A DNA stretch of 64,000 bases from an uncultured virus (IMG/VR IMGVR_UViG_3300025751_003710) (lineage: Duplodnaviria > Heunggongvirae > Uroviricota > Caudoviricetes), in IMG/VR virus record IMGVR_UViG_3300025751_003710; one strand, 5' to 3'. This document shows, one piece after another, positions 2,554 to 40,500 of this stretch. Numbering within the stretch: position 1 is the first letter of the stretch; each line of letters begins with the position of its first letter. The notes beneath the pieces were generated by a model. The model saw only the letters and a program-made list of their open reading frames with translations. It had not been told where the DNA came from and ran no database searches. The position numbers and the translations under genes were made by a program.

Positions 2554-2582
2554 TTGACAAGGTGCTCTACCGTTGCTAGAGT
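2554..2582 (+). promoter_or_regulatory. sigma70-like promoter upstream of the nuclease-helicase operon
   Basis: TTGACA-17 nt-TAGAGT with TG extension. A second extended -10 (TGcTATGAT) lies at 2658-2666. Confidence 0.55.
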
Positions 2583-2697
2583 GCCTTTGTTAAGGTTAAA
2601 GAGAAAGCTTTAGCTTTAATTAAATTCTTAAAGGGAGACCGTTTGGTTTCCCTTTTCTGCTATGATAACCCTATTCTGAGTTCCTAGAAGACTCCCA

Positions 2698-4857
2698 ATG
2701 GCAACGAACATTTATTTTATTGGTCAAAAAGATAAACCTAACTGGTTTGGTGTTGGTGAGACTAAAGGTCCTCTGATGATTGAGGAGTATGGTATTCCTC
2801 GTCGTGGTTCTGATTACAACAAGTCAAGAGATGCTTGTGTTGTCTATACTGAAATATCTTTTTGGAAAAACGTTTCAACTCGTAATGATATTGATGTAAA
2901 GCATGACAAAATAATTCATGATTGGTTGGAAACTATTCCTGGTATTACCAAAGTAGGCACAGAATCATTTATAATTAACGCATATGGTTTGGGTATTGGT
3001 CTGACCCATGAAAAGATTGCTTATATGATTGAGCAGGAGTTTTTCCCCAAAACACCTAAGACCAAGAAAGATCTGACTCTCAAAAAGCATCAGCAAGAGT
3101 TTGTCAATAAAATCCTCTCTACTTGGGAAGAGTGGAAAGAGTTTCTGCTGTTTGCTAAGTGCCGTGCTGGTAAATCCATTATGGTTCTGTCAGCAATCGC
3201 ACGAAAAGGTGTCAAGGTAAGTCTGATTGTTTCTCGCTACACTTCTCCCATCCAATCTTGGAAGGAAGATAGTAAAAACTTTTCAGAGTACAACGATCTC
3301 GTATTCATCAACCTTGCAGATAAAGACTATCTGGATCAGATTGAATATTGGTACAATACTGACAAACAACTTGTCCTGTGGACCACGGTTCAGGGTAACA
3401 ATCGCTGGAACAAGATTCCATGTGATGTAGATCTGATCGTCTATGATGAGGCACACCAAGGTTACAATTCAACTCAATTTAAGAAACTCCGTAAGAAGTT
3501 TGATTGTCAGGTTCTGTATGTAACTGGCACTGCTTTTGATATAGTTTGGGACTTTTCAGAGTCCAATTCTTTCAAGTACTCTTACTTTGAAGAGCAACTG
3601 GATAAGAAACTGGGTTTGAACAATGCCCCTTCCATGAGAGTTATTCTTGCAAAGTACGATACTGATGCATACAAGAAACTGTATGGAGATGATCCAGATG
3701 CAATGAAGAACCTCTTCTGTATGAATGAAGATGGGTCTGATTTCGTGCAACCTTCTTTGGTTCAAGATTTTTATGCAACTTATTTTGCAGATCAGAAACA
3801 TTTGAAACCGAATGATCGTCTTCTTAATGGTAAGTTCCACATCTATATGACACTTCCTTCGGTAGCAGCATGTCATTCTTCGGTTAAGTATTTGGAGAAG
3901 ACTAAGTTTGCCCCTCTGGTTGTAACTGGAGATACGAAAGAAGATTCTGACACAATTAGAAAGCACGTTGTAGAAAACGAATACACCATTATTCTGACTG
4001 TTTCTGCTAATGTTCTTGGTGTTACTATTCCTGAAATTGATACTGTTATCAATGCTAGCGAAGGTGAATCCATCAACTTTTGGACTCAATTTGCTTTCCG
4101 TGGTGGATCATCTGATCGTGATTGGGATGTAATCGATTTCTGCCCTCAGCGATGCCTTAAAACCCTTCGTGAGATTTTTATTGCTGCGTGTGAAAACAAT
4201 CCAATGATTGCAGAGTACATTATGCTCGATTTCATTCCTATCATTGAGTGGTCGAATGGTTTTGAGACTATGACTCAAGATCAGGTCGCTTCTATTCTTG
4301 CTTCCGATGTCACTAACACCATCTCTCTGATTTCTAACATCGTGAACAGCATGGATATGGGCAAACTTGCAAATTGCCAATTCAATTTGTCTCTCCTTTC
4401 TAAGGAAAAGAACAATGGTAGTAAGCGAGAGGTGAATGACAATGGTGCTAACGGTAAAGGAAATATCCAACGTGACGATGAATGTTCCGAAAAGCAAGAT
4501 AACTCAATTATTCTTACTAAAAAGGAAACCATTCGTGCAATCTTGGGGAGAGTTCCTCTTGCAATCTATCACTGCATTAAGAGTGGTGTTGTTCCAAACA
4601 GCATTCACAGTCTGATCAACTCAGATCACTACATTTATAATACTCTTGATACAGAAAAAATCATTGAGCAACTGATTTTCGAAGAAGTTATTGATGCAAA
4701 GTCATTCTCTTTTCGAATTAATCAAGTAGTCATTGATATTCAACACTCTATCAATATTGATGAGTGTAAGACACTTGAGAAACTGTCCTGCTCTCGTCAG
4801 AATCAGCAGTCGATGCCTGTAGAATTGGTAGAATCTCTGTTGGATATCTCCCTGTGA
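2698..4857 (+). CDS. GIY-YIG/T5orf172-like nuclease fused to an SF2 (DExH) helicase; restriction-subunit-like
   Basis: N-terminal IYFI..FGVGET..R..D.IIH.WL..GTESF; Q-motif LKKHQQE; Walker A AKCRAGKS; YDEAH; VTGTA; GVTIPEIDTVI; WTQFAFRG. Confidence 0.7.
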   Translation: MATNIYFIGQKDKPNWFGVGETKGPLMIEEYGIPRRGSDYNKSRDACVVYTEISFWKNVSTRNDIDVKHDKIIHDWLETIPGITKVGTESFIINAYGLGIGLTHEKIAYMIEQEFFPKTPKTKKDLTLKKHQQEFVNKILSTWEEWKEFLLFAKCRAGKSIMVLSAIARKGVKVSLIVSRYTSPIQSWKEDSKNFSEYNDLVFINLADKDYLDQIEYWYNTDKQLVLWTTVQGNNRWNKIPCDVDLIVYDEAHQGYNSTQFKKLRKKFDCQVLYVTGTAFDIVWDFSESNSFKYSYFEEQLDKKLGLNNAPSMRVILAKYDTDAYKKLYGDDPDAMKNLFCMNEDGSDFVQPSLVQDFYATYFADQKHLKPNDRLLNGKFHIYMTLPSVAACHSSVKYLEKTKFAPLVVTGDTKEDSDTIRKHVVENEYTIILTVSANVLGVTIPEIDTVINASEGESINFWTQFAFRGGSSDRDWDVIDFCPQRCLKTLREIFIAACENNPMIAEYIMLDFIPIIEWSNGFETMTQDQVASILASDVTNTISLISNIVNSMDMGKLANCQFNLSLLSKEKNNGSKREVNDNGANGKGNIQRDDECSEKQDNSIILTKKETIRAILGRVPLAIYHCIKSGVVPNSIHSLINSDHYIYNTLDTEKIIEQLIFEEVIDAKSFSFRINQVVIDIQHSINIDECKTLEKLSCSRQNQQSMPVELVESLLDISL

Positions 4858-5813
4858 ATCCTCTTCTTATTGTAGGTGATCCTTCTGGTTTACACTCCCT
4901 TACTGCTATGAAGAGGGGGTGGAAACCAGAAAATATTTGGGTTTGGGAGAATGATCCAACACATTTTTACACAATTAAACAACAACATGCTAAAATAAAT
5001 CTAGTAGAGGATTTTGGGGAGTTAAAGTATATGAATAAGAGATTTATTTCCATTGGCAATCCCCCATTTTCAGACCGATCAAAAACAAATAGTTCGAAAT
5101 CTCCCGATCTAGACTCTTTGTTTGTATTGGAATGTATGGAAATAAGTTGTTATATCAAAATGATCATTAGATCAAAGCATTTTACAAATCCAAAATCTAA
5201 CTTTAGAAAAAAATTATTTTCTAGTGGGCATGTAAAATCAATTATTAGAGTTGATGATAGTGCATTTCCAATTCAAAATACAGAAACTTGTATCTTAGAA
5301 TGGGATGAAACCTATACTGGACCCACAAAAATTAAATATAAAAACGGTGAAATTTTTGAAAAATATCTTGATAAAGATACTGTTATCAAACTAGATAATC
5401 CAGATTTTGTTGCAGAGGTTGAAAACAATCTTGCACACAGGTGGGTTAGGGGAAAATTGAATAGAAATAAAATTGTTCCTGGAAATTCTCCTATGGTAGA
5501 GGTTTGTGGTACAGGAGAAACACCAGTAATTCAAAATATTGAACCTGGATTGGAAGAAACCGCTAGAAATGTTCATGGTGTAGTGATCAACGTTGCTGCT
5601 GACTGGGGATCTTTAGGTAAAGTTATGATAAAACCATATGAAGCATCTATCAGTAGCAGTGTAATGTGCCTCAAAACAGATTCTGAGGAAGAATCTATTC
5701 AACTCCGCGATTACTTACTTTCTGATAAAATATCAGAAATTGTGAAATTGAATATGCCATCGTTTCACCCGACCAAAGACCTTTTTAAGAAAATTAAAGA
5801 CCCTTTTAAATGA
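4854..5813 (+). CDS. Amino-methyltransferase catalytic/specificity protein (Eco57I-like), paralog 1
   Basis: Motif IV IGNPPF, a DLDSLFV motif V-like segment and a long C-terminal putative target-recognition region. GTGA overlap with the helicase stop codon. Confidence 0.65.
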   Translation: MNPLLIVGDPSGLHSLTAMKRGWKPENIWVWENDPTHFYTIKQQHAKINLVEDFGELKYMNKRFISIGNPPFSDRSKTNSSKSPDLDSLFVLECMEISCYIKMIIRSKHFTNPKSNFRKKLFSSGHVKSIIRVDDSAFPIQNTETCILEWDETYTGPTKIKYKNGEIFEKYLDKDTVIKLDNPDFVAEVENNLAHRWVRGKLNRNKIVPGNSPMVEVCGTGETPVIQNIEPGLEETARNVHGVVINVAADWGSLGKVMIKPYEASISSSVMCLKTDSEEESIQLRDYLLSDKISEIVKLNMPSFHPTKDLFKKIKDPFK

Positions 5814-5958
5814 ATCTTCTCCTTATTGTTGGTGATCCTTCTGGTTTGCACTCTCTTTCTGCATTGAAAGATGGATGGAAACCTGAAAATATTTGGGTTT
5901 GGGAAGACAATCCTGCACACATCTATGCAATTCGACAACAACATGCTAAAATAAATGT
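4855..5958 (+). repeat. ~150-bp imperfect direct repeat (4855-~5005 and 5811-~5958)
   Basis: Shared blocks ggtgatccttctggttt, gaaaatatttgggtttggga and caacaacatgctaaaataaat. Confidence 0.9.
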
Positions 5959-6562
5959 AACGGAAGATCTAGATCATCTTATTCAACAAAAAATGCGTTT
6001 TACATTAGCAATCGGCAATCCTCCATATGGGGTTGGTGCAAATCTAGCAATCAAGTTTCTGAATAAAACTTCAGAACTTACTGATGATATTCGATTTGTG
6101 CTGCCAACTTCTGTTCGTAAACCATCTTCTCTGAATAAGATATCTTTTAATCTACATTGTGTTGTGGATCAAGATCTCGATGCTTCTACTTTTCCTGGTG
6201 GTATTAGTGCAGTAAAACAACACTGGGTTGTAAAGGAAGAAAAGCGTGAAAAGATTTTCATGCACAAATCACACCCAGATTTTGAATTTCTTTCATATGA
6301 AAAGCGATTCGATGCTGATGTTTTCATTGGTGAATATGGATGTGGACCTAGTGGGCGAGTAAAAACTGAAAATTTCACTCACTATGCGAAAGGGCATCAT
6401 TTTATTAAGGTTCATAATCAGAAGGTGATTGAAAACTTTCTAGAATTTGCTCCTAGATTTAGAGAAGTTGCAAATCAATGTAATGGAAGATATCATTTTG
6501 GTAAGAATGATCTTATTTCAACGTACATAGAGTGTTTAGAGGAAAAGAATGAGCAAAAATAA
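5810..6562 (+). CDS. Amino-methyltransferase catalytic/specificity protein, paralog 2
   Basis: Motif IV IGNPPY, then LAIKFL and FVLP. First ~50 aa are highly similar to those of 4854..5813. Confidence 0.7.
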   Translation: MNLLLIVGDPSGLHSLSALKDGWKPENIWVWEDNPAHIYAIRQQHAKINVTEDLDHLIQQKMRFTLAIGNPPYGVGANLAIKFLNKTSELTDDIRFVLPTSVRKPSSLNKISFNLHCVVDQDLDASTFPGGISAVKQHWVVKEEKREKIFMHKSHPDFEFLSYEKRFDADVFIGEYGCGPSGRVKTENFTHYAKGHHFIKVHNQKVIENFLEFAPRFREVANQCNGRYHFGKNDLISTYIECLEEKNEQK

Positions 6563-7025
6563 ACATAATCAAGATGTTGGATCTACAATCGAAAGATCTG
6601 ATGAACGTATTGCAGAAACTCAAGAGGTATTCACTCCAGCAGAACTATGCGAATCTATGGTTTCTGAGATTGAAGAAGAGTTATTGAAAGATCCTTCCTC
6701 TACTTTTCTTGATAACTCTGCTGGTTGTGGTAATTTTATTGTTGCTCTAATCAATAAACTCTCAGAATATCACGATCGCCATTATGTAATTGATAATATG
6801 GTTTATGCTGTTGAGTTGATGGAAGACAATCATAAAGAAATGTGTGAGAGAGTTGGTGTTCCTATTGACCATCCACATTATGTGTGCCATGATGCTCTCA
6901 CCTATGATTATGGGTTTGGTGAACCAGTTGCATTGGAAGATCAATTAGGAATAATTCCTCAAGCAAAGGGAGAAAAACCAAAACCTCCTAGTAAAGATCC
7001 TAGTGAGGCACGACTGCCTTTGTAA
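6549..7025 (+). CDS. DNA methyltransferase N-terminal (SAM-binding) module lacking motif IV
   Basis: QEVFTP (motif X), FLDNSAGCGNF (motif I), VYAVEL (motif II), CHDAL (motif III); no NPPY/DPPY. Confidence 0.7.
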   Translation: MSKNKHNQDVGSTIERSDERIAETQEVFTPAELCESMVSEIEEELLKDPSSTFLDNSAGCGNFIVALINKLSEYHDRHYVIDNMVYAVELMEDNHKEMCERVGVPIDHPHYVCHDALTYDYGFGEPVALEDQLGIIPQAKGEKPKPPSKDPSEARLPL

Positions 7026-7080
7026 AACCAGTTTATAGACCGTTCACTGGGTTTCCTGGTGGGCGGTTTTCTGCTATAAT
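7025..7080 (+). promoter_or_regulatory. Dyad-motif early promoter, copy 1 (degenerate)
   Basis: aaacca-N10-cgttca, 28 nt, then TATAAT with TG extension. Confidence 0.5.
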
Positions 7081-7106
7081 ATATCCATACTGAACAGGAC
7101 ACACAC

Positions 7107-8291
7107 TTGACCATCACACTTCGACCACACCAGCATGAAGCAGTTAATGCGATGTGGCAGAACAACAAAGGTCAGGTGATCATTCCTACGGGTGGTGGCA
7201 AGACTATTTGCATGATCGATGATGCCATTACTAATATGGAAGTCAGGCATCATGGGCAAACTTTTGTTGTTGTTGCTCCTCGGATTCTTCTTGCAGAACA
7301 ACTCTGTAAAGAGTTTCTTGAGATGGTTTCACCCGCCCACAATGCCCATGTGATGCACGTTCACAGTGGTGATGTTGAGTTTTTCCACACCACCAAACCC
7401 GAGAAGATTCATCTTTTTGCAAACACTGCACGAACTGCTGGTGAGAATGTAATCATCTTCACTACATATCACTCCCTTCATAAAGTTCAGGAGGCAGACA
7501 TTGAAGTCAATACGATTTACTTTGATGAAGCGCATAATTCTGTGCAGAGAAACTTTTTCCCTGCTACGGAACACTTTGCTTCTGAGTCTGATCGGTGTTA
7601 TTTCTTCACTGCTACTCCTAAGCATTCTGTTACTGTTTTCAAACCAGGGATGAATGATGTTGAGATTTATGGGCAGGTTATTTGCAATGTTCCTGCACCT
7701 AAATTGGTTGAAGAGGGTTACATTCTTCCTCCGAAAGTTGTGGTTCAAGAACTTCCTCAGGGTGATCTGAAGCAATCTGATGACAAGAATCTGCTGGATA
7801 CTATTGATGCAAATTCTCTGAACAAGATTTTGATTGCTGCACGTTCTACCAAGCAAATTGTTCGCCTTATCCAAGAGACTACCTTCTGCTCCGAACTTGC
7901 TGGGCGTGGTTATTCTTGGATGGTGATTACTTCCAAGACTGGTGCAATCATTGACGGTAAGAAAGTTACTCGTGAAGAGTTTTTCAAAACTTTGAACACT
8001 TGGGGAAAAGATTCTGAGAAAAAGTTTGTTGTGATTCACCACTCTATCCTTTCTGAGGGTATGAACGTCAAGGGATTGGAAGCGGTGCTGTTCATGCGGA
8101 ACATGGACTACATCGGAATCTCCCAATCAATCGGGCGTGTGATCCGCCTAGGAGGCGCTGAGAAGACGTTTGGATTGGTTTGTGTGCCTGTGTTTGATAA
8201 GGTTGGTATCAGCACTGCTAGGAGCGTTCAGGCGGTTGTGGATACCGTGTTCCAGCAGGGAGAGCCAGCGATTTCCGTTGTGCGGCGCTGA
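7107..8291 (+). CDS. SF2 DExH-box helicase (ResIII-like)
   Basis: LRPHQ, PTGGGKT, DEAH, TAT, LSEGMNV, QSIGRVIR. Confidence 0.9.
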   Translation: MTITLRPHQHEAVNAMWQNNKGQVIIPTGGGKTICMIDDAITNMEVRHHGQTFVVVAPRILLAEQLCKEFLEMVSPAHNAHVMHVHSGDVEFFHTTKPEKIHLFANTARTAGENVIIFTTYHSLHKVQEADIEVNTIYFDEAHNSVQRNFFPATEHFASESDRCYFFTATPKHSVTVFKPGMNDVEIYGQVICNVPAPKLVEEGYILPPKVVVQELPQGDLKQSDDKNLLDTIDANSLNKILIAARSTKQIVRLIQETTFCSELAGRGYSWMVITSKTGAIIDGKKVTREEFFKTLNTWGKDSEKKFVVIHHSILSEGMNVKGLEAVLFMRNMDYIGISQSIGRVIRLGGAEKTFGLVCVPVFDKVGISTARSVQAVVDTVFQQGEPAISVVRR

Positions 8292-8335
8292 TACTGTCCA
8301 CCAGGAGCAGAATCTCTGCTCCTCTCTGCTATAAT
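8279..8335 (+). promoter_or_regulatory. Dyad-motif early promoter, copy 2, with internal hairpin
   Basis: tgtgcg-N10-tgtcca, hairpin aggagcag/ctgctcct, TGcTATAAT. Confidence 0.55.
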
Positions 8336-21932: not shown

Positions 21933-24083
21933 ATGTCGGAAACTAATAAAACTGAAGAATTGTTTGGTAGTGGTTCTATCAAATGGTCTGATCTTAGAGA
22001 GAACTTTAAGGGAAAAACTGATGGAACTCTAAATGCAAGAGAGCTTTATAGAGAAGCAGCTTCTGATGTTTATAATTCTTATGTTCCAGATGCAGATGAG
22101 AATGCAAGCATACCTGCCATGGATTCTGGGGAACCATTATCTATGTCAGATTTTAGAGATACTGTAAAAGAAATTGTAGTAGAGCAGTCGGGAAGAAATG
22201 CTAATTATGATGCTGCAGGTTCTACTTACTGGGGTGGTAATTTAGATAAAAATGTAAAAAAATTATTGCGTATTAAGGGGCAAGTATATAGTGAGGATGC
22301 CACTAGTTCGGCAATGTCTTGGTCTGGTAATGCTAATAATGTTGATATTTCAGTGCATGGTTCAGTGACTGGAATGTATGGTCTTAAAGGAACTGCAAGT
22401 AGAGCAAGTAGTCAAAATCCAGTTACTGGTGAACCTGATGGGCAAGATGGTGGACCAGCACTTGAGATTACTGGTGTTCCTGAAAGTGATTTAATAGAAA
22501 TTAAAATTGATGGTCAATCAGGCACGATTCGTGGTGGAGGTGGCGGCGGAGCTGCTGGAATTGGTGGAGTTTCTGGTGAAGATGGACTTGATGGTGCCGA
22601 TGGTTCCGATGGTGATGCTGGTGCCGATGGTCCTGCTAATACAAATCCAGATTCTGGAAACCCTGGAGGAGGTGGATCTGGTGGACTTTTTGGAAGTGCT
22701 GGACAAATTGGGCAAGGTGGAATTGGATATAATCCAGGTGTAGGACCTGCTGGTGATGGTGGAGACAGTGGTGATGGTGGAGACGGTGGTGATGGTGGAA
22801 GAGGTGGAACAGGTGGAGATCCTGGTGCCGATGGTGCCGATGGTGCTCGTGGTGCTGATGGTAGTCCTGGTAAGTGTCAGGGTGTAACTGATCAACAAAC
22901 AGAGCAGGCATGTGGTGATCCTGCACCAGCATGTCCTTCAGGTTGGGAAAGTAGAGAGCAGAGAGATTCTGGATCATGTGGTGGAAGAATGTGGGACTGG
23001 GGTGGAAATCAATATAGAACAAGAACTTGTAGAAGAATTGAGCAAGTTCAAGTATCTGGTGGCCAAGGTGGAGATGGTGGTGAAGGTGGAAGTGGCGGAA
23101 CAGGTGGTAGTGGTGGACGAGGTGGAAACGGTGGAAGAGGTGGTAGTGGTGGAAGAGGTGGACGAGGTGGAGCTGGTGGAGCTGGTGGAAACGGTGGAAA
23201 TGGAAAAGGTTGGGGTGTGTCATATAATACGGCACAAAAGGGGCAAGATGGTGGAATAGCTGGAGAAGGGCAAGCAGGTGGAGATGGTGGAGCTGGGCAA
23301 GTTGGTGGAACAGGTTCTTCTGGTAGCAGAGGAGGCAGTGGTGGTTATGGTGGTTATGGTCAACAAGCTGAATTTTGCCCTGGTGGATGGTCTGGCAGTG
23401 CCCAGGCTGGAGAGCAAGGTAAACGGGGTGAAGCAGGTGAGCAGGGAAAAACTGGACAAAAAGGACAAGACGGACAACCTGGTGAAGCTGGTCAAGCTGG
23501 GCAAGATGGAACGGCAGGGCAGAAGGGCACTGATGGTGCAGATGGTGGAGATTATGGTGCAGATGGTGGAAGTACACCTTATGGAAATGGTGGTACTGGT
23601 GGAAAGGCAATTGCAGGTGATGGTGGATATTACATTACACAATCTCAAGATAGAATTCTTGGTGCCACAGAAAATTCTGGATCGCAAGGTCGAACATCAG
23701 GAACACCGACAACATTTGTCAATAACATCACAACTATAACCGCAACACTGTCTGCAAGTTCCACAACATTTAATGAAGGTGAATCAATTGATTTTACAAT
23801 CGCTGCAACCAATTGTGAGAATTCGACGACTTTATATTTCAGTGTGAGTGGATTTGCACTTGGACCGAATGATTTAGAAGATCAACCAACAACAAATGAT
23901 TACAAAACTGGAATTGTAAATGTCCAGAACAATACTGGAACATTTACGATTACATCTAAAACTGATGAAATCACAGAAGAAGCACCTGAAAAGGAATTTT
24001 TAGTTGCTCTTCGATTAGACGGCACTGATGGTGAAATTCTTGATTATGTGTATATCACACTTCAAAATGTAATTACAGAATAA
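21933..24083 (+). CDS. Glycine-rich (polyGly-II/collagen-like) adhesin or fibre protein
   Basis: GGPAL...IRGGGGGGAAG as in T-even gp38 adhesins; GGX and GXY repeats; C-terminal Ig-like beta domain. Confidence 0.65.
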   Translation: MSETNKTEELFGSGSIKWSDLRENFKGKTDGTLNARELYREAASDVYNSYVPDADENASIPAMDSGEPLSMSDFRDTVKEIVVEQSGRNANYDAAGSTYWGGNLDKNVKKLLRIKGQVYSEDATSSAMSWSGNANNVDISVHGSVTGMYGLKGTASRASSQNPVTGEPDGQDGGPALEITGVPESDLIEIKIDGQSGTIRGGGGGGAAGIGGVSGEDGLDGADGSDGDAGADGPANTNPDSGNPGGGGSGGLFGSAGQIGQGGIGYNPGVGPAGDGGDSGDGGDGGDGGRGGTGGDPGADGADGARGADGSPGKCQGVTDQQTEQACGDPAPACPSGWESREQRDSGSCGGRMWDWGGNQYRTRTCRRIEQVQVSGGQGGDGGEGGSGGTGGSGGRGGNGGRGGSGGRGGRGGAGGAGGNGGNGKGWGVSYNTAQKGQDGGIAGEGQAGGDGGAGQVGGTGSSGSRGGSGGYGGYGQQAEFCPGGWSGSAQAGEQGKRGEAGEQGKTGQKGQDGQPGEAGQAGQDGTAGQKGTDGADGGDYGADGGSTPYGNGGTGGKAIAGDGGYYITQSQDRILGATENSGSQGRTSGTPTTFVNNITTITATLSASSTTFNEGESIDFTIAATNCENSTTLYFSVSGFALGPNDLEDQPTTNDYKTGIVNVQNNTGTFTITSKTDEITEEAPEKEFLVALRLDGTDGEILDYVYITLQNVITE

Positions 24084-27868: not shown

Positions 27869-28021
27869 ATGAACTACGACGAAATTCTCAAAATCTGGAA
27901 TAACGAAACACCAGATGATTTCGCTATCTTCAGTGAGTTCTACTATCAAATGTTTGGGGAGGATTTTGATATCCCCTACACAACAGATTCAACCCGTTCC
28001 TCATTCTTCCCCTACGACTAA
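27869..28021 (+). CDS. Small acidic hypothetical protein
   Basis: Start moved to MNYDEIL. Confidence 0.6.
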   Translation: MNYDEILKIWNNETPDDFAIFSEFYYQMFGEDFDIPYTTDSTRSSFFPYD

Positions 28022-28221
28022 TGACTGAGACTAAGTTCAACATCTACGGTGAAATGTTTCACTCTAATGGTTACTCTCGCTTTGACGTTCTGAGTTACAT
28101 TGCACCCACACAACAGGAAGCAATTGCTAACTGTAAGCGCAACAATCCTGGGTTTCATGTTATGTCATGCTGGGTTGATGAGAGTGAACCTGAGGTAGTG
28201 AGATTGCAACCCCTTAGGTAA
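28021..28221 (+). CDS. Hypothetical protein
   Basis: ORF track. Confidence 0.65.
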   Translation: MTETKFNIYGEMFHSNGYSRFDVLSYIAPTQQEAIANCKRNNPGFHVMSCWVDESEPEVVRLQPLR

Positions 28222-28276
28222 CACTAACCGTTCCGATTCTCAATATACATTTTTTATTGAGAATCGCGGCCGCCTG

Positions 28277-28333
28277 TGTGCGGTCGGGGAAGTGGCACAC
28301 AAAAGACGCACGCTCCCCCAGACCGACTATATT
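28277..28333 (+). promoter_or_regulatory. Dyad-motif early promoter, copy 11
   Basis: tgtgcg-N10-tggcac, 29 nt, TATATT. Confidence 0.6.
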
Positions 28334-28358
28334 GAACTAGTTCAAACGAAACGACCTC

Positions 28359-28721
28359 ATGCGTAAGATCGAATCTGAAATGATTGCCGCCATCAAAGGT
28401 AACACTGACTGGAAATCTGCAAACACTGAGGTTATTCACACTTGCGACAATGTCAACCCTCCCGTGTCCCATGTATATCTTCACGGATCTAAGATTGCTG
28501 AGGTTGGTGATGACTTCCTGAAACTATTTGACGGTGGTCGTCAATCAATGACCACAAAGTCACGTCTAAATGCACTTCTTTCTGAGTTTGGTTACACTTG
28601 CGGAACCAAGCAAGAGTACATTTTCCAGAAGCAATGTGAGTGGTTCATTCAAATGTTCGACCTGACTGAAAAGGCAATGCGGACTATTCCTTTCACCAAC
28701 GGAATGCGCCTTGCTGGATGA
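28359..28721 (+). CDS. Hypothetical early protein (MRKIE...TTKSRLNAL)
   Basis: ORF downstream of promoter. Confidence 0.8.
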   Translation: MRKIESEMIAAIKGNTDWKSANTEVIHTCDNVNPPVSHVYLHGSKIAEVGDDFLKLFDGGRQSMTTKSRLNALLSEFGYTCGTKQEYIFQKQCEWFIQMFDLTEKAMRTIPFTNGMRLAG

Positions 28722-28726
28722 CACTT

Positions 28727-28769
28727 AGAGGGGATTAATCCTCCCCTCTTTCTTTATACCTTTTTTTTC
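28727..28769 (+). terminator. Probable terminator hairpin
   Basis: agagggga...tcccctct followed by a T-rich tract. Confidence 0.55.
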
Positions 28770-28772
28770 AAA

Positions 28773-28925
28773 ATGACCCGCAATGTTCTCATTTCGCTCC
28801 TCCGCCAGGGTTCTACGGGTAGCGAAATTCTCCGAATTCTTGACACTATTGTTTTGGGGGATAGTGATGACAAACCTGGTCAGCGTCCTAGTTACGTCCC
28901 AACCCTCACCCCCATCGACTTCTAA
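28773..28925 (+). CDS. Small hypothetical protein (50 aa)
   Basis: Manually translated MTRNVLISLLRQG... Confidence 0.6.
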   Translation: MTRNVLISLLRQGSTGSEILRILDTIVLGDSDDKPGQRPSYVPTLTPIDF

Positions 28926-28983
28926 TCCAGTCGCCACACTGGCACAACCCTAGGGGCAGATCTGCCAGGGCATCGACTAGGAT
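28924..28983 (+). promoter_or_regulatory. Dyad-motif early promoter, copy 12
   Basis: aatcca-N10-tggcac, 32 nt (containing ggcagatctgcc palindrome), TAGGAT. Confidence 0.5.
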
Positions 28984-29009
28984 ACACTCAAGCAAACGAA
29001 CCAAACCCC

Positions 29010-29246
29010 ATGAACGGATTTGCCAACTACGAAACCTGGAATGCATCCCTCTGGATTCAGAACGACCGCTTCCTGTACAACACCGCTAAGGCGTGTGTGA
29101 CGTACTGTGAGGCAGGCGACAACCCTTGGGCGATCTTCCAACGTTGCATGGACAACTGCGCTCGCACCATGACTGGTGATGACGTGGCATGGACCGACCC
29201 CGCCATCGACGCCGCTGAGATGAATGAGATGATGGCGGAACTCTGA
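29010..29246 (+). CDS. Hypothetical early protein (NG.ANYETWN..LWI.ND)
   Basis: ORF track. Confidence 0.8.
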   Translation: MNGFANYETWNASLWIQNDRFLYNTAKACVTYCEAGDNPWAIFQRCMDNCARTMTGDDVAWTDPAIDAAEMNEMMAEL

Positions 29247-29296
29247 GGGGATCCGCCCCCCATCCGTGCTACAATAGCACCAAGCGCAACCCCCCC

Positions 29297-29503
29297 ATGA
29301 TCAACACCTGCCTCGTCTTCGCCACCCCCCAGAGCAGCGCCTCTGAGGAGATCCGCCTCTATCCCTTCCGCCGCCATGCCATGGTTTTCTGGCAGTCGGG
29401 TCACTACAGCGCCCACACCGTGCGCCGCCGCGACATGCTCCGCTTGCTGCTGAATCCGAAGCAAAGCGCGGGCGCATGGATCAACGATTACGCCCTCGCC
29501 TGA
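29297..29503 (+). CDS. Hypothetical protein
   Basis: Preceded by TGcTACAAT and a leader shared with the next gene. Confidence 0.65.
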   Translation: MINTCLVFATPQSSASEEIRLYPFRRHAMVFWQSGHYSAHTVRRRDMLRLLLNPKQSAGAWINDYALA

Positions 29504-29556
29504 GGGTTGCGTTAACGCCCCAGATCCTGTACAATACCACCAAGCGCACCGATCCA

Positions 29557-29739
29557 ATGAACACCGCAACAATCGACGGCATTCAATTCAAGGTCACCCG
29601 CCTGCCCGTTGCTCATGGCAGCAAAGCGAACCGCTGGACCTCCCGCATCAAAGGCGGATCCTCCCGCGTTCGCACTGGGGCAGGTTCCCGCTCCGTGCAC
29701 CAGAGCACCAAGGCAAGCGCCCTGGCAGACGTGCGCTGA
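29557..29739 (+). CDS. Small basic hypothetical protein
   Basis: Start moved to MNTATIDG; preceded by TACAAT. Confidence 0.6.
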   Translation: MNTATIDGIQFKVTRLPVAHGSKANRWTSRIKGGSSRVRTGAGSRSVHQSTKASALADVR

Positions 29740-29957
29740 CGCCATTCGTTCGTGACCACAGCAGTGCCCCCTAGGGGGTGCCGTCGTGGCGCGGGGCGCG
29801 TGGCTAAAAACCAATGGATCCCCTAATCTATAAAGTGTTACCCAAGCGAGAACAATGTTACAGCGAAAGTCAAAATTTTTTTCGCACAAAAAATTCGCCC
29901 ATAGGGTTGCATCAAGTATTCTCAAATACTATATAAAATATTAAAGCGATTGATAGT

Positions 29958-30134
29958 ATGAAAAAAAATAGGGAGAATGAAACAACTACTGTTAGTGTGG
30001 ATCCTGTTACTGGAGATTATTTAATGGTACTTCCCGAATGGATTTTAAATGAATTTGGATGGTATGAAGATACTGTTTTAGATTTAAAAGTCGAGGGTAA
30101 TGAGATCGTAATATCCGAATATAGCGGGGATTGA
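29958..30134 (+). CDS. Small AbrB/MazE-like protein (58 aa)
   Basis: Manually translated: ...YLMVLPEWILNEFGWYEDTVLDLKVEGNEIVI, a swapped-hairpin pattern. Confidence 0.55.
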   Translation: MKKNRENETTTVSVDPVTGDYLMVLPEWILNEFGWYEDTVLDLKVEGNEIVISEYSGD

Positions 30135-34568: not shown

Positions 34569-37500
34569 ATGATATCGACAAATTTTGAGAGTAGAGTTAA
34601 AATAAACGAAATTGTCAGTAATCAAATACCAGAATTTATTTTGGATCAAAATCCAAAATTTTCTGAGTTTTTGAAGCAATATTACATTTCACAAGAATTT
34701 GAAGGTGGTCCAGTAGATATTGTTGAAAACTTAGATCAATATTTAAGTTTTCACTACTTAAACGAAAAGTTATACAATAATAATATTACAATATCATCAG
34801 ATATAACATCTTCTGATGATACTATCACATTATCAACAACCAGAGGTTTTCCAAAATCTTATGGTTTATTGCAAATTGATGATGAAGTAATTACATATAC
34901 TGGTATTAGTGGGAATAGTCTGACTGGATGTGTACGTGGATTTTCAGGAATAACTAGTTTAGAGTCTGTCGATGATCCAGAAGAATTAGTATTCTCTTCA
35001 ACAAGTTCAGCAGCACACACTGCAGGATCATCAGTTAAAAACTTAAACTTACTATTTTTAGAAAACTTTTTTAAGAAGTTAAAACAAATTTATGCTCCTG
35101 GATTTGAAGAATTTGATTTTACAAGTGAGTTAAATACGAATACTTTTATATCTAAAGTAAAATCGTTCTATCAGACAAAGGGAACTGAAGAATCTATCAA
35201 AATATTGTTCAAAATATTATATGATATCAATCCAAAAATCATAAATCCAGAAGATTATTTAATAAAACCATCAGATGCCGAATATCTTCGCAGAAAGATA
35301 GTTGTTTGTGATTTATTAACTACTGGTGGTAATCCATTTAAATTGGTTGGACAACAAATAAAAAGTTTTGATGGAACTTTTTCTGGACCAGTATCAAAAG
35401 TAGATATTTCAACAAAAAATAATAAAACAGTCTATAAAATCCATTTATTTTATGGTTATGGTGATGATGATTTAATTGATGGTAATTTTAGAATTACACC
35501 AAAGACAAAATCATTAGAACCTATTAATGTTGGTGATACTACTATAACTGTAGACTCAACAATAGGATTTCCAAAATCTGGAACAATTGTAGTTGAGGGT
35601 AATGAAGTAACATATACAGATAAGAGTGTCAATCAATTTTATAATTGTACTAGTGTAGTAGATAATATTTCTTCAAATAAGAACGTTTATCAAAAAGATT
35701 CTACTGTATATGGTTTTGAAGATGGTGACTCTTCAAAACGAATTGACTTTATTGTTATAGGTTCTCTTGTTACAATTGATGGTATAGATGATTTTACTTT
35801 ATTGTCTGATACCGATATTGTTGAACTTGGTGAGCTTGGTGATGATATTAGAAATGATATAGTAGATAAAACTATAAAAGAATATTCTTTTGGAGCATTA
35901 AAATATAATGTAAAAACAAGTTATGATATTTTAAACTTTAATATTGGAAGTGCTGAATTAGTTCTTTATGAAGAACCTGATAAAAATAGTTTAAATGAGA
36001 ATGAAATTGTTGACATTCTTTTAAAAGACACCGAAACTGTAATTTTAAACGATGTGCAGGTAAATTCTATAATTGGAAGAACTGTAACTATAGATACTCC
36101 GATTACTGGTATTTTACCACAACAAAATATTGCAATAAGAAGAAATTTAAACTTTGCGAATAGTACAAAAGTTCAGATAAAACATGAAAATGTCTTATCT
36201 GATGTTCAAAATGCATATAGTTATGAAGATGATTTATATATTGCATCAAATTCTTTACCATCTAGAGATATAACATTAGATGTTAAAAAAGTTAGTAAGA
36301 CAATCACATCATCTTTAGATGCAGATCAGTTTTTTGATGGATTTAGTGCACAAAAATATACAATTTTATCATTTGAAAATGAGGTTCCATTTTTAACTGG
36401 AGATGCTGTAAAATATTTTCATACTACAGAAAATTCTATATCAGAACTACCAAATTTTGAGTTATTTTACGTTGAAGTTTTAGAACCAAAAAACAAAATA
36501 AGACTTTATTCAGCACTTTCATTTTTACCAGTCTCAGATTTTTTAAAGTTTGATAAAAATACTGAACTTGGAACACACACCTTTGTTTTAGAGCAACATG
36601 CTAGTCAAATTATTGAACCATCAAACTCACTGAAAAAAATTCCACTAGAAAGATCATTTAGTTTATCTGAAAAAGAATATAAAACAGAAAGTGGTGTAAT
36701 TGGGGTTTTAGCAAATGGTGTTGATATCATTAATTACAAATCTGATGACAAAGTATTTTTTGGTCCATTAGATTCATTAAATGTATCAAATCAAGGATTT
36801 GGATATGATGTTATTAATCCACCAGATGCTGAATTAAGTTCCCCAAACTATAACGTTGGAGTTGGAACTACAGCAAAAATGAATTTAGTTGTTAGTGGAT
36901 CTTTTGAAGATGTTTTTGTTGATCCACAACAGTTTGGTGTATCTAGAATAATTACAATTTATGCTAAAGGTGGAAATGGTAAAAATGCTGTCTTTGAACC
37001 TATTACCAAAAAACAATATAGAACAATAATTTTCAATGCTGCAGATATTGAATTTGGTGGATCAGTTGATCCTAATAATGATAGTTTTATCTTTAATAGT
37101 AGCCATGGATTAACTAGTGGAGAAAAAATAGTTTACAATACTAATGAAAATTTGGGTATTGGTATTGGACCTTTTAATGGATCCAATTTAGATAGTGGGG
37201 GAACATTAGTCAATGGTGGAATTTACTATCCAGAAGTTATTAATTCAAATAGCATTAGACTCTATAATACAATTTCAGATTTAAATAGTGGTATTAATAC
37301 TGTTGGTTTAACGACAATTAATAACTATGGAACTCACAAATTTAGAGTATTTGAACCAATCAATGTACTCTCATATGTTAGAGTTGTAAATCCAGGTGAA
37401 AATTATACCAATAGAGTATTAAATATATCACCATCAGGAATTCATACTGCTGGTGATACTTTTGTATTTGAAAATCATGGATTTACTGACGGTGATTTGT

Positions 37501-40500
37501 TAAATTATTCATATAATGATACTGGTATAGTAGGATTAGATACTTCCAAAAAATATTATGTATTAAAACTAAATGATAATTCTTTCCAACTTGCAGATGG
37601 TGGACAAAAAAATGATGATGAAAGCGAATTATCAAAACAAAATTATAAGAAGAGAAAAAATATAACTATATCTTCATCTGGACAAGGATATCAGACTTTT
37701 TCGTATCCACCAATCTCAGTTGAAGTTGTTGCAGAGTATACTGGAATAGTTTCATCAATAACTTTAACTCCAAAAGTTAGAGGAAAGGTTATTGATGCAT
37801 ATCTTTATGAAAAAGGAACCGAATATGGATCAACTGCTTTAAATTTAAACATCAAACCAACGGTATCAATTAAAACTGGAAGTGGTGCACAATTAAAACC
37901 ATTGGTAGTTGGTAATAAAGTTTTATCAGTTCAAGTTCAAAATAAAGGTGAAAATTACAGTTCTTCAGTAGATTTGGAGGTTGTTGGTAAAGGTATAGGA
38001 TGTGTTTTAAGAGCTGTTGTTGTTAATGGACAAATAGACAGTGTTATTGTTATAAACAGTGGTACTGGGTATGATGATTCAACTTCTATTACCATATCTA
38101 CACCTGGTCAAGGTGCTGTTATTATACCAACCATAAGATCTTTAACAGTTAATGATTTCTATAGATATCCTGGTGATTTTTATCTGGAGAATAAAGAAAA
38201 AAATGCTCTAACCTATGGAATTAATGGTTATTTTTCTTCTAGAGAGGGATTGGAATTTGATGATCCCAATCCAGATACAAATCATTCAAGAATAATAGGT
38301 TGGGCTAAAGATGGAAATCCAATTTATGGACCAAATGGTCATACAGATCCAACATCATTTACATCACCAATAAAAAGACTTGAAACAGGATATGTTTTAG
38401 ATCCTTCAAACATTTTTAATAGACCTTCTACAGATATTTTACCATCAGGATTTTTTGTTGAGGATTATAAATTCAACGATAGTGGTGATTTAGATAGACA
38501 TAATGGTAGATTCACCAAAACTCCAGAATTTCCAAATGGAATTTATGCATATTTTGCAAGTACAAAGTTAGATATTGCAACTTCTGCACAAACTGAAATT
38601 GTCCCAGAGTTTCCATATTTTGTTGGAAATACATATAGATCTACACCAATTGATACATTTACATTAGATCAAAATGATGATTTAGATTCTGCAAATTTAC
38701 TGAGAAATACTTCACCATATAGAGTAAATCGAGAAAATTCTTCTAATTATTATATACCCAAAAATTTTGGAACTAGGCAGAGATGTGATATAAAATCTGT
38801 AGAGTCTGGTAGTGTTGATAGATTAGTGATTGATAATGCTGGAGATGGTTATAGTGTTGGCGATACTCTAATTTTTAACGAAACTAATACTGATGGAAGT
38901 GGTGTTTCTGCAGAAATTGTAGAAGTAAAAAATAGTGCAGAGATTGAGAATATTCAGACATCATATATTTTAAATGAAAATGTTATTTTCATTTGGGAAA
39001 ATAGTAGTACAATAAAGGGTTATATTTTACCATCACACAATTTAGTTGATAATGATAGAATAGAAATCACAGGAATTAGTACATCTTCAGTAGATTTTTT
39101 GAATGGTAATCACAAAATTTCTGTTGAAAGTGAAAAAGTTATTCTCACAAATAATATTAGTAGTGGTGATGTTGGAGATGTAGTAGATTTACAAGTTGAC
39201 AAGATTCCAACAACAACTAGTATTGGTAGTAGTGTAAGTACTGGAGGTGAAAATTTTACAATCTTAAATGTTTATAATCAAGAAAACGTTTTAAGGTGTA
39301 AAAGACATTCTGCAGGATTAGCACATACAGTATCAGATATTATTTCAATTATACCTTCACAATTTACATTTAACTTAAATTCAAATTATTTTGAAAGCAG
39401 TCTTTCTCCAGTATATAATTTTAATCCCAATGATTCAATTGGGATTGGAACTGAAGATGGTTCTTATTCTTCTACAACCTTAACTTATGGAGGTGTGAGC
39501 AAAGAAGTAGAATTGAAAACTCTATCAATATATTTACCAAATCATCCGTTCAATACTAATGATAAAGTTCGTTTCAAATTGAGTGATGAAGCTGGTGCAT
39601 CTGCCTTATTAGTGTCTAATGAATCTAATGGATCTCAATTCTCATTGCCATATAATCCAGTTACTGATAATACTCAGGACTTGTTCATCATCAAAAAATC
39701 TGATGATTATATTGGAATAGTTACACAGGTTGGATTAACAACCACATCATCTGGATTGTTCTTTAATGGAAATGGATCAGATTTTGATGATTATAAGTTT
39801 GAGAAGTTGGAAGAAGAAAGTGTAACAGGAACTTCCACAAAAATAACTACAACAATTACAACCAATTTAAATCATAATATATTAGATAATGATTTATTAT
39901 CTTTAAAAGTAATACCAAATAATACTAGTGGTGGAATTACAACTTCATCATCTTTAGTGTTTAAATATAATCCAGATTTTAATAAATTAGTTACTAATCC
40001 AGTTGGTTTTTCATCATTATCAGTAAACCTAGATGAAAATACAATTGAAATAAATTCGCACCAATATGTAAATGGAGACAAAATTTTATATACAACAGAT
40101 AATTTTGTAACGGGTGGAATAGGAACTGGCATATACTTTGTTAATAAGTATGATAGTAATAAAATAAGACTTTGTGATACCTATCAGGATTCTGTTTCTA
40201 ATCCTGCAAATCCAATTTCTATTGGAAATAGTGGCAGCAATTCTCAAGAAATTAGTAATGTAAATCCAAAAATACGTGGTGTTAAGAATGGAACCCTGAG
40301 ATTTGATCTATCAAATTCTTCACTCAGTGGATATGAATTTAATATTTTCTCAGATAAGCAATTTACAAAACCTTATGTATCAACTGGAAGTACATCTACT
40401 TTTAATGTACGTGTTAGTGGTACACCAGGAACTGATGGAATAATCGACGTTAAGTATGATAATAATCTTCCAGATTTATACTATTCTTTATTAAAGGATA

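Follow-up and report, generated by a model that had tools for sequence, protein, structure and literature searches.

We analysed a 64,000-nucleotide stretch of the uncultured virus record IMGVR_UViG_3300025751_003710 (the window refers to this whole stretch) and focused on a cassette of four open reading frames (ORF1 to ORF4), which encode a helicase-like protein, two methylase-like proteins and a protein resembling one half of a methyltransferase. As listed in Table 1, the four ORFs overlapped by 4, 4 and 14 nucleotides (nt), with GTGA and ATGA as the junctions, and ORF2 started with GTG. The initial annotation had described four overlapping, coupled ORFs; we found its coordinates as claimed and every motif that it quoted in the translations. 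The cassette was not a chance arrangement, because PHROG families covered ORF1 (phrog_22930, E 2e-215), ORF3 (phrog_5172) and ORF4 (phrog_4376), and because it recurred in 80 viral contigs of a survey seeded with ORF4 and in 69 of a survey seeded with ORF1.

Table 1. Positions of the four ORFs, of elements within them and of features around the cassette, numbered from the first letter of the window (aa, amino acids; SF2, superfamily 2).
Feature	Position	Strand	Description
ORF1, 719 aa	2698-4857	+	Predicted SF2 motor; T5orf172-like N-domain at residues ~1-125 (lead); ResIII 126-279; Helicase_C 383-454; C-terminal region ~480-719
Last 20 residues of ORF1 (SRQNQQSMPVELVESLLDISL)	4795-4854	+	Putative motif-X-like helix, which would continue into the ORF2 methylase domain
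ORF2, 319 aa	4854-5813	+	N-module (GDPSG motif I, WE motif II) 4854-5030; junction Met 5031; NPPF 5058-5069
ORF3, 250 aa	5810-6562	+	N-module 5810-5992; junction Met 5993; NPPY 6017-6028; predicted TaqI-like fold without motif X
ORF4, 158 aa	6549-7025	+	Motif X FTP 6630-6638; motif I FLDNSAGCGNF 6705-6737; motif II AVEL; motif III HDAL
Sigma-70-like promoter TTGACA-17-TAGAGT with TG, 5' of ORF1	2554-2582	+	Best-scoring site (10/12); consensus match only
TTCTGCTATGAT element, -10-like	2655-2666	+	Small hairpin before it; recurs at 7069 and 8324
TTCTGCTATAAT element, 5' of the next gene	7069-7080	+	End mark of the cassette
394-aa helicase, next gene after the cassette	7107-8291		Conserved; flanks the locus in most relatives

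The motifs EVFTP, DNSAGCG, AVEL and HDAL were all found in ORF4, while motif IV was not. The conserved part comprised residues 1-131 (6549-6941) and was followed by a Lys/Pro-rich tail (6942-7022) that was not conserved; the family phrog_4376 has 134 positions. Upon profile alignment, motifs X and I of ORF4 were placed on residues 29-82 of CamA. Among 64 viral sequences with identities of approximately 59-92%, residues F53, D55, A58, G59, G61 and N62 of motif I and E89 of motif II were invariant. Judged from its sequence, ORF4 corresponds to the X-I-II-III half of a gamma-type N6-adenine methyltransferase, encoded as a protein of its own. This agrees with the earlier proposal of a stand-alone half that binds S-adenosylmethionine (SAM), as the four motifs were present, conservation ended near residue 131 and the gene travelled with motif-IV genes. 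In cellular genomes, ORF4 was found at only 5 loci, all of them in metagenome-assembled genomes. Additionally, residues 75-114 held a His/Cys cluster, in which H75, C99, H108 and H110 were invariant and H79, H95 and C113 were present in at least 90% of the 64 sequences; this cluster appears atypical of gamma-class methylases and may form a metal site.

The survey seeded with ORF4 comprised 80 viral loci, 70 of which were informative in having at least 700 nt upstream. A gene with motif IV ended at or overlapped the ORF4 start in 62 of the 70 informative loci; one gene intervened between the partner and ORF4 in seven loci, and one locus was cut by the contig end. The partner and ORF4 overlapped by 3-25 nt (70 rows measured, including some partners without motif IV). 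The first motif pattern had found 56 of the 62 loci, and the partner classes refer to these: 5 partners were short (<200 aa), 8 had 200-300 aa, 27 had 300-600 aa, 13 were fused to a helicase (at least 890 aa), and 3 were cut at the 5' end by the end of the contig. The short partners, of which PSSM2_036 of phage P-SSM2 is one, began with M-R-F-x-L-x-I-G-N-P-P-Y. They were without strands 1-3 and started at strand 4 with motif IV, at the point where ORF4 ends after strand 3 with motif III. Because the short partners began exactly at motif IV, such a pair appears to be a true two-chain enzyme with a permuted gene order (motif IV onwards, then X-I-III), and in these relatives ORF4 must, on its motif content, supply the whole cofactor-binding half. 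In six loci, a conserved ORF of 187-224 aa separated the methylase gene from ORF4 (sites include L047:2747-3310, L051:2975-3541, L053:4402-4962, L061:2657-3328 and L062:3739-4302); those of L047 and L051 belonged to phrog_7683 and had no Pfam match. These inserted ORFs contained a G-I-D-G-R-G ... V-I-Q-C-K pattern, which we take to be similar to a PD-(D/E)xK (Mrr-like) core. In another locus (L036:1899-2435), a 2-oxoglutarate (2OG)-Fe(II) oxygenase gene lay between a short ORF3-type partner and ORF4, and the usual overlap was broken.

A word-based search for longer or fused relatives of ORF4 returned none, and an exhaustive profile search later found them: 1.84 billion representatives were searched with the ORF4 profile, yielding 2778 matches at E <= 1e-3. 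The architecture was scored in the best 150 of the 2778, where 106 proteins were stand-alone, 15 had the canonical order X-I-II-III-IV, 3 were scored as permuted and 26 were longer without a recognisable motif IV. P0021 and P0054 were clear permuted fusions, with motif IV N-terminal and X-I-II-III C-terminal, and P0111 was doubtful. The canonical set included proteins of 1251 and 1337 aa in which an SF2 helicase and a methylase follow an N-terminal region that is presumably a PD-(D/E)xK nuclease. The split methyltransferase that the initial annotation had proposed was thus well supported for the pairs of a short partner and ORF4, by sequence logic, synteny and these Rosetta-stone fusions together, but the proposal was not supported for ORF2 and ORF3 of the window, which carry an N-terminal module (N-module) of their own.

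Both ORF2 and ORF3 contained IVGDPSG. They were 65% identical over the first 74 residues and showed no similarity beyond; the common N-module comprised 61 residues, with the junction Met as M60 in ORF2 and M62 in ORF3. The C-terminal part (C-part) of ORF2 after motif IV, 245 residues in length, was unrelated to that of ORF3. This pattern of similar N-termini and different C-termini after motif IV supports the idea that the two are alternative modules, and the internal Met residues that had been noted just before motif IV were present in both. Motif IV, (N/D/S)PP(Y/F), was found as NPPF in ORF2 and NPPY in ORF3 and was not found in ORF4; among 30 sequences, G69, N70 and P72 were invariant, and P71 and Y73 were conserved in at least 90%. 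The Pfam scores within the window were below cut-off (ORF2, Eco57I, 24.9 versus 25.3; ORF3, 18.1; ORF4, N6_Mtase, 11.2 versus 20.4), and relatives scored above it, namely gp056 of phage S-CAM7 (55.4 bits), a 360-aa protein of L013 (44.9) and the protein of L047 (44.3). The C-part of ORF3 was homologous (185 columns, 98.8%) to that of a canonical methylase of 272 aa from rV5-like coliphages, which carries its own X-I-II-III; on this homology, the ORF3 C-part is taken to be a real methylase part. When the N-module, or the N-module together with the preceding motif-X-like element, was compared with ORF4 using hhalign, no significant similarity was found, so the N-module is not a detectable copy of ORF4. 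No further catalytic halves were found elsewhere in the 64-kb window.

ORF1 contained a Walker A motif (AKCRAGKS) and DEAH, and matched ResIII in Pfam with 33.6 bits (cut-off 22.5) and Helicase_C weakly; ResIII was matched in 15 of 18 members of the ORF1 family. The survey seeded with ORF1 comprised 69 loci, 55 of which had at least 2.3 kb downstream, and 46 were non-redundant. ORF4 was present 744-1751 nt after the helicase in 54 of the 55 loci, and the helicase and methylase were encoded in one ORF in 25 of the 46 and were split in 21. The ResIII match and these fusions support the view of ORF1 as an SF2 motor linked to methylases. Two N-module methylases, as in the window, occurred in only 3 of the 46 loci. 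The initial annotation had also considered a decayed single gene, and ORF1 and ORF2 are indeed a single gene in the 25 loci, yet the split form was intact and conserved in the other 21, across loci only 52-82% identical, and is therefore an alternative arrangement and not decay. In the genomes of S-CAM7 (L155, L002) and L154, a helicase-linked set was found together with a short pair, and both sets had an ORF4 of their own; those of S-CAM7 were 75% identical to each other. C-parts of ORF3 that were 91-94% identical to that of the window occurred with the N-module (L082) and without it (L008), beside ORF4 copies that were 91-92% identical to that of the window. As the same ORF3-type C-part stands beside ORF4 in both forms, ORF4 appears to be functional there and can evidently be the only N-half.

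The first 125 residues of ORF1 showed the pattern N-I-Y ... F-G-x-G-x-T ... D-x3-H ... E-[TSW]-F, with F17, T22, D70, H74 and E89 invariant in the family. All 30 named neighbours in an ESM-feature comparison were T5orf172 clusters (24 of them also MUG113), with a score of 0.91 and 156 of 256 features shared. Using hhalign, the N-terminus was aligned with the Pfam-positive T5orf172 domain of the fused partner in L054 at 42% probability over 33 columns. T5orf172 scored above its Pfam cut-off of 20 in two other helicase-fused partners (22.0 and 21.5 bits). The ORF1 N-terminus may therefore be considered T5orf172-like and a candidate nuclease, as a lead only; no Mrr-family match was found there. 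Region 480-719 resembled clusters that carry EcoEI_R_C, also at the level of a lead (0.90-0.92; 108-113 of 256 features). In GenBank, gp055 and gp056 of S-CAM7 are labelled 'restriction subunit' and 'DNA methyltransferase', and the fusion proteins of the MA01 group are labelled restriction subunit, methyltransferase or Eco57I. Additionally, the T-even-like Klebsiella phage PKO111 (L162 991-2926) encodes gp114, in which a LEM-3 GIY-YIG domain (57 bits) is joined to a motif-IV half; the overlapping gene after it, gp115, is ORF4-like. The pair repeats the arrangement without a helicase, in a phage whose enterobacterial host can be cultured. PKO111, the T5orf172-positive fused partners and the GenBank labels provide independent support for the link to a nuclease.

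The end of ORF1 was compared with the fused relatives, in which the sequence just before the N-module reads ...S-x-S-x-x-x-Q-Q-x-I-P-x-x-L-L-D-x-M-I..., and Q-x-[IML]-P-x-x-L-[LV]-D-x-[ML]-[IL] is conserved approximately 22 residues before DPSG (counted in L079). We take this spacing to be that of FTP...D in ORF4 and TaqI. In the window, ORF1 ends with the corresponding element, QQSMPVELVESLLDISL. By position and pattern, the C-terminus of ORF1 would be a motif-X-like helix, and the break between ORF1 and ORF2 would therefore cut between motif X and motif I. If so, the tail of ORF1 would complete and tether either ORF2 or ORF3, which would explain why only the N-modules have stayed alike.

We consider it an even chance (probability of approximately 0.5) that the cassette encodes a modular, split and motor-linked methylase machine resembling a restriction-modification (RM) system, in which ORF4 is the trans-acting cofactor half. 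The four ORFs would constitute one transcription unit for an adenine methyltransferase machine that is linked to an ATP-driven motor and distributed over separate polypeptides, with a layout like that of Type ISP enzymes or DnmA-YeeB-YeeC cut into pieces. ORF1 would contribute the T5orf172-like candidate nuclease, the SF2 motor and a C-terminal region ending in the motif-X-like helix; ORF2 and ORF3 would be two alternative TaqI-like methylase and recognition modules, either of which could dock on the ORF1 tail. ORF4, translationally coupled to the last catalytic gene, most likely pairs with the catalytic halves of ORF3, ORF2 or both, and would act in exchange with or beside the less constrained N-modules in cis. 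The machine would mark the DNA of the phage and attack unmarked DNA of the host or of rivals, with ORF1 as the presumed nuclease. A more elaborate form of this proposal, which is possible but doubtful, is that as many as three gene products combine into one methyltransferase domain, with motif X from the motor tail, motifs I-III from ORF4, and motif IV and recognition from interchangeable parts, where ORF4 as the universal half would compete or cooperate with the N-module in cis. In that case, the phage could swap specificity and toggle between a free methylase and a motor-tethered restriction complex by recombining parts, and the family would keep living intermediates of circular permutation (canonical, split and permuted-fused).

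Several results weigh against the split, motor-linked machine, beginning with the fold of ORF3. An AlphaFold2 model calculated from a 30-sequence alignment (predicted local distance difference test, pLDDT, 89.1; predicted template modelling score, pTM, 0.79) revealed the N-module as strand1-helix-strand2-helix-strand3 ahead of strand 4 and NPPY. Foldseek matched the model to class I methylases with E values down to 8e-8, and VIA-align superposed residues 1-143 on complete class I methylase domains with Z-scores of 13-14 and root mean square deviations (rmsd) of 2.5-2.9 Å over 136-140 residues (best case, Z 13.9, rmsd 2.5 Å, 136 aligned), indicating a class I (Rossmann-like) SAM-dependent methyltransferase fold. 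Residues 1-246 of the model were aligned to residues 40-409 of M.TaqI (Z 12.2, 231 residues), and the modelled ORF3 is thus a mini-TaqI lacking only the N-terminal motif X segment. In the N-module, D9, P10, G12, W31 and H37 were invariant in 49 sequences and H14, E32, M62 and F64 were conserved in at least 90%, while the motif III acid was not conserved; its (D/E)P...H loop is presumably TaqI-like. The N-module may itself bind SAM, making ORF4 dispensable for catalysis in the window. The earlier claim that motif I of ORF2 and ORF3 is no more than degenerate and that ORF4 is required to complete their fold is not supported in the window, given the complete fold of the ORF3 model and the near-invariant motif I and II residues. 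Besides the fold, one helicase locus (L098) had an N-module methylase and no ORF4. The ORF1 tail element was placed by hhalign on TPAELCESMVSEI of ORF4 without significance (E 0.15), and the motif-X-like helix is thus suggested by position and pattern, not by demonstrated homology. A Shine-Dalgarno-like 4-mer was present upstream of the junction Met in only 7 of 50 cases; short isoforms produced by internal initiation are therefore unsupported, and we rejected them. The complete fold of ORF3 and the conserved motif I and II residues of the N-module agree with the main rival reading, which we regard as tentative and on balance unlikely, in which ORF2 and ORF3 are self-sufficient together with the motif-X tail of ORF1, and ORF4 is an accessory SAM-binding subunit outside their catalytic fold. 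It could then activate them from an edge strand, in the manner of TRMT112 with small NPPY methylases, sense SAM and so gate restriction against modification, or serve as a second protomer. The methylase chains of METTL5-TRMT112 and N6AMT1-TRMT112 were among the structural neighbours of the ORF3 model, P0094 and P0111 are single chains in which two N-halves stand in tandem, and ORF4 was kept in 54 of the 55 helicase loci although the partner has an N-module. An accessory role is harder to reconcile with the ORF3-type C-parts of L008 and L082, which stand beside nearly identical ORF4 copies whether the N-module is present or not, and with the visibly degenerate N-halves in cis of other partner classes. 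It also sits poorly with the selection on the two modules: the ratio of nonsynonymous to synonymous substitution rates (dN/dS), from 15 pairs of six loci with N-module and ORF3-type partners, many with a synonymous rate near saturation, was 0.06-0.30 for ORF4, 0.04-0.17 for the ORF3 C-part and 0.15-0.45 for the N-module. ORF4 was under strong purifying selection, and the N-module evolved approximately three times faster.

A second group of results bears on whether the machine restricts DNA at all. T5orf172 was matched by Pfam in 0 of 18 full-length members and 0 of 17 N-termini of the ORF1 family, and the search of PDB sequences with ORF1 profiles gave no match for the N-terminus. The GIY-YIG/T5orf172 assignment of the initial annotation therefore survives as a lead, favoured by the ESM score and the hhalign probability and disfavoured by Pfam. 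With PADLOC, ORF1 and ORF2 matched none of the defence-system models, and ORF3 and ORF4 matched only the generic MTase_II. The cassette might instead encode a self-protection or regulatory methylase with a motor for recombination, repair or homing, or might be a selfish mobile island of a hypervariable region; we judge this improbable. The Pfam and PDB sequence searches verified no nuclease active site in ORF1, the distribution among isolates was patchy (8 phage records with ORF1 and 54 with ORF4), and short pairs occurred without a helicase or a recognisable nuclease nearby. Moreover, T5orf172 has been proposed to act in recombination (PMC7824862), and DnmA-YeeB-YeeC is reported to have given no phage protection in B. 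subtilis (PMC9973331). On the other hand, the nuclease-like domain, motor and methylase are covalently fused in the 25 of 46 relatives, and in PKO111 a bona fide GIY-YIG domain is joined to a motif-IV half, which is how RM enzymes are laid out. ORF4-like modules also lie within the 1251- and 1337-aa helicase-methylase proteins, the N-termini of which we take to be nucleases. It is extremely improbable that ORF4 and the split junctions are functionless debris of a once-complete gene. ORF4 does end where motif IV would start, and ORF1 and ORF2 are one ORF in many relatives, but ORF4 has invariant motif residues in the 64 sequences and low dN/dS, most of its best-scoring relatives are stand-alone, the genes are coupled by overlapping starts and stops (-3 to -25 nt, 70 rows), and the split helicase/methylase form has stayed intact in diverged loci. 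The debris reading appears already contradicted by these conservation data.

The genome in the window was that of a T4-like cyanomyovirus, with genes for the baseplate wedge, tail sheath stabiliser, head closure and a 2OG-Fe(II) oxygenase, for which the nearest named relatives were Synechococcus and Prochlorococcus myoviruses. Megablast of the locus against phage records gave zero matches, and the NCBIfam search gave no score near the cut-offs. The TTCTGCTATGAT-type element had 5 matches at one mismatch or fewer compared with 1.23 expected, and 3 of them were on the + strand before gene starts. Because it recurs before the next gene and at 8324, the four ORFs look like one unit. The element is part of a repeated intergenic arrangement of GACCGTT..., a short hairpin and TTCTGCTAT(G/A)AT, found at 2631-2668, 7038-7085 and 8324-8335, which precedes ORF1, the 394-aa helicase gene and genes beyond the helicase; it looks like a phage promoter type common to neighbouring units. 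Elsewhere in the window, stretches of high G+C content were observed at 22001-24000 (0.46, GC skew 0.39) and 28001-30000 (0.51), with 0.28-0.39 in the rest of the genome; a 716-aa ORF that weakly matches a tail fibre overlaps the stretch at 22001-24000. Two giant ORFs lay among the baseplate genes, at 34569-48569 (4666 aa) and 50197-57294 (2365 aa).

If the proposed split, motor-linked machine is correct, the family would contain a naturally split and permuted amino-methyltransferase in which a constant cofactor subunit serves many catalytic and recognition subunits, some of them tethered to a nuclease motor. As a tractable natural system, it would allow the study of how fragments of the class I methylase fold complement one another and of the evolution of circular permutation. 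Moreover, abundant marine and freshwater cyanophages would carry an RM-like weapon of their own, which bears on the breakdown of host DNA and on exclusion between phages. Cultured carriers exist, namely S-CAM7 and the MA01 group (cassette), P-SSM2 (short pair) and Klebsiella phage PKO111, and the proposal is therefore directly testable.

Upon comparison with known systems, the closest likeness in domain order was to Type ISP enzymes, which are described as having a nuclease, an SF2 motor, a linker, a gamma-type adenine methylase and a recognition region in this order. The fused cyanophage relatives (1015-1177 aa) share this order, ORF4-like modules occupy the canonical place in the 1251- and 1337-aa proteins, and ORF1 has the SF2 helicase-like ATPase. 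Type ISP enzymes, however, hold the nuclease, motor, methylase and target recognition domain (TRD) in a single polypeptide, whereas the window has separate ORFs, and their N-domain is Mrr whereas that of ORF1 appears T5orf172-like. The window also differs in its extra free-standing X-I-II-III half, in its two alternative methylase modules and in being encoded by a lytic phage. No similarity to LlaGI or LlaBIII was found in profile and phmmer searches of PDB sequences with the ORF1 profiles, P0140 and the fused protein of L065, a further point against the machine as proposed; in view of this and of the PADLOC result for ORF1 and ORF2, we claim that the cassette works like such systems, not that it belongs to them.

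A similar clustering of methylase, helicase and T5orf172 functions is found in DnmA-YeeB-YeeC, which is described as an MmeI-like methylase, an SF2 helicase and a T5orf172 protein that form an RM-like system of uncertain mechanism, anti-phage in Vibrio crassostreae (PMC9973331). According to the same text, the methylase is a large single chain of the MmeI type and T5orf172 is a C-terminal domain of a separate protein. In the window, by contrast, a single protein contains both the T5orf172-like region and the helicase, the methylases, at 250-319 aa, are minimal, and there is a half-methylase gene in addition; MmeI_Mtase was not matched by ORF2, ORF3 or ORF4 in Pfam.

As regards the methylase itself, the likeness to M.TaqI and the gamma class (Eco57I PF07669, N6_Mtase PF02384) lies in NPPY and NPPF, in the alignment of the ORF3 model and in that of ORF4 with CamA. 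Gamma-class amino-methyltransferases have the order X-I-II-III-IV-TRD in one chain, whereas no single chain of the window contains X-I-II-III-IV: ORF2 and ORF3 start at motif I, and ORF4 stops after motif III. The gene order of the short pairs is like the motif order of the beta class (IV-VIII, TRD, X, I-III in one chain), but two chains are involved and the motifs have gamma-type sequences. A literature search, with subscription journals and REBASE outside it, found no description of a split N6-adenine enzyme in phages. M.AquI and M.EcoHK31I are naturally split C5 methylases that are cut near the recognition domain, and duplication is a route to circular permutation. M.AquI and M.EcoHK31I resemble the present pairs in that one methylase fold is formed from two polypeptides, whereas in the pairs the division of an amino-methylase falls between strand 3 and strand 4, and the gene order is inverted. 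In the representative library, the canonical, split and permuted-fused forms of the ORF4 type were found side by side.

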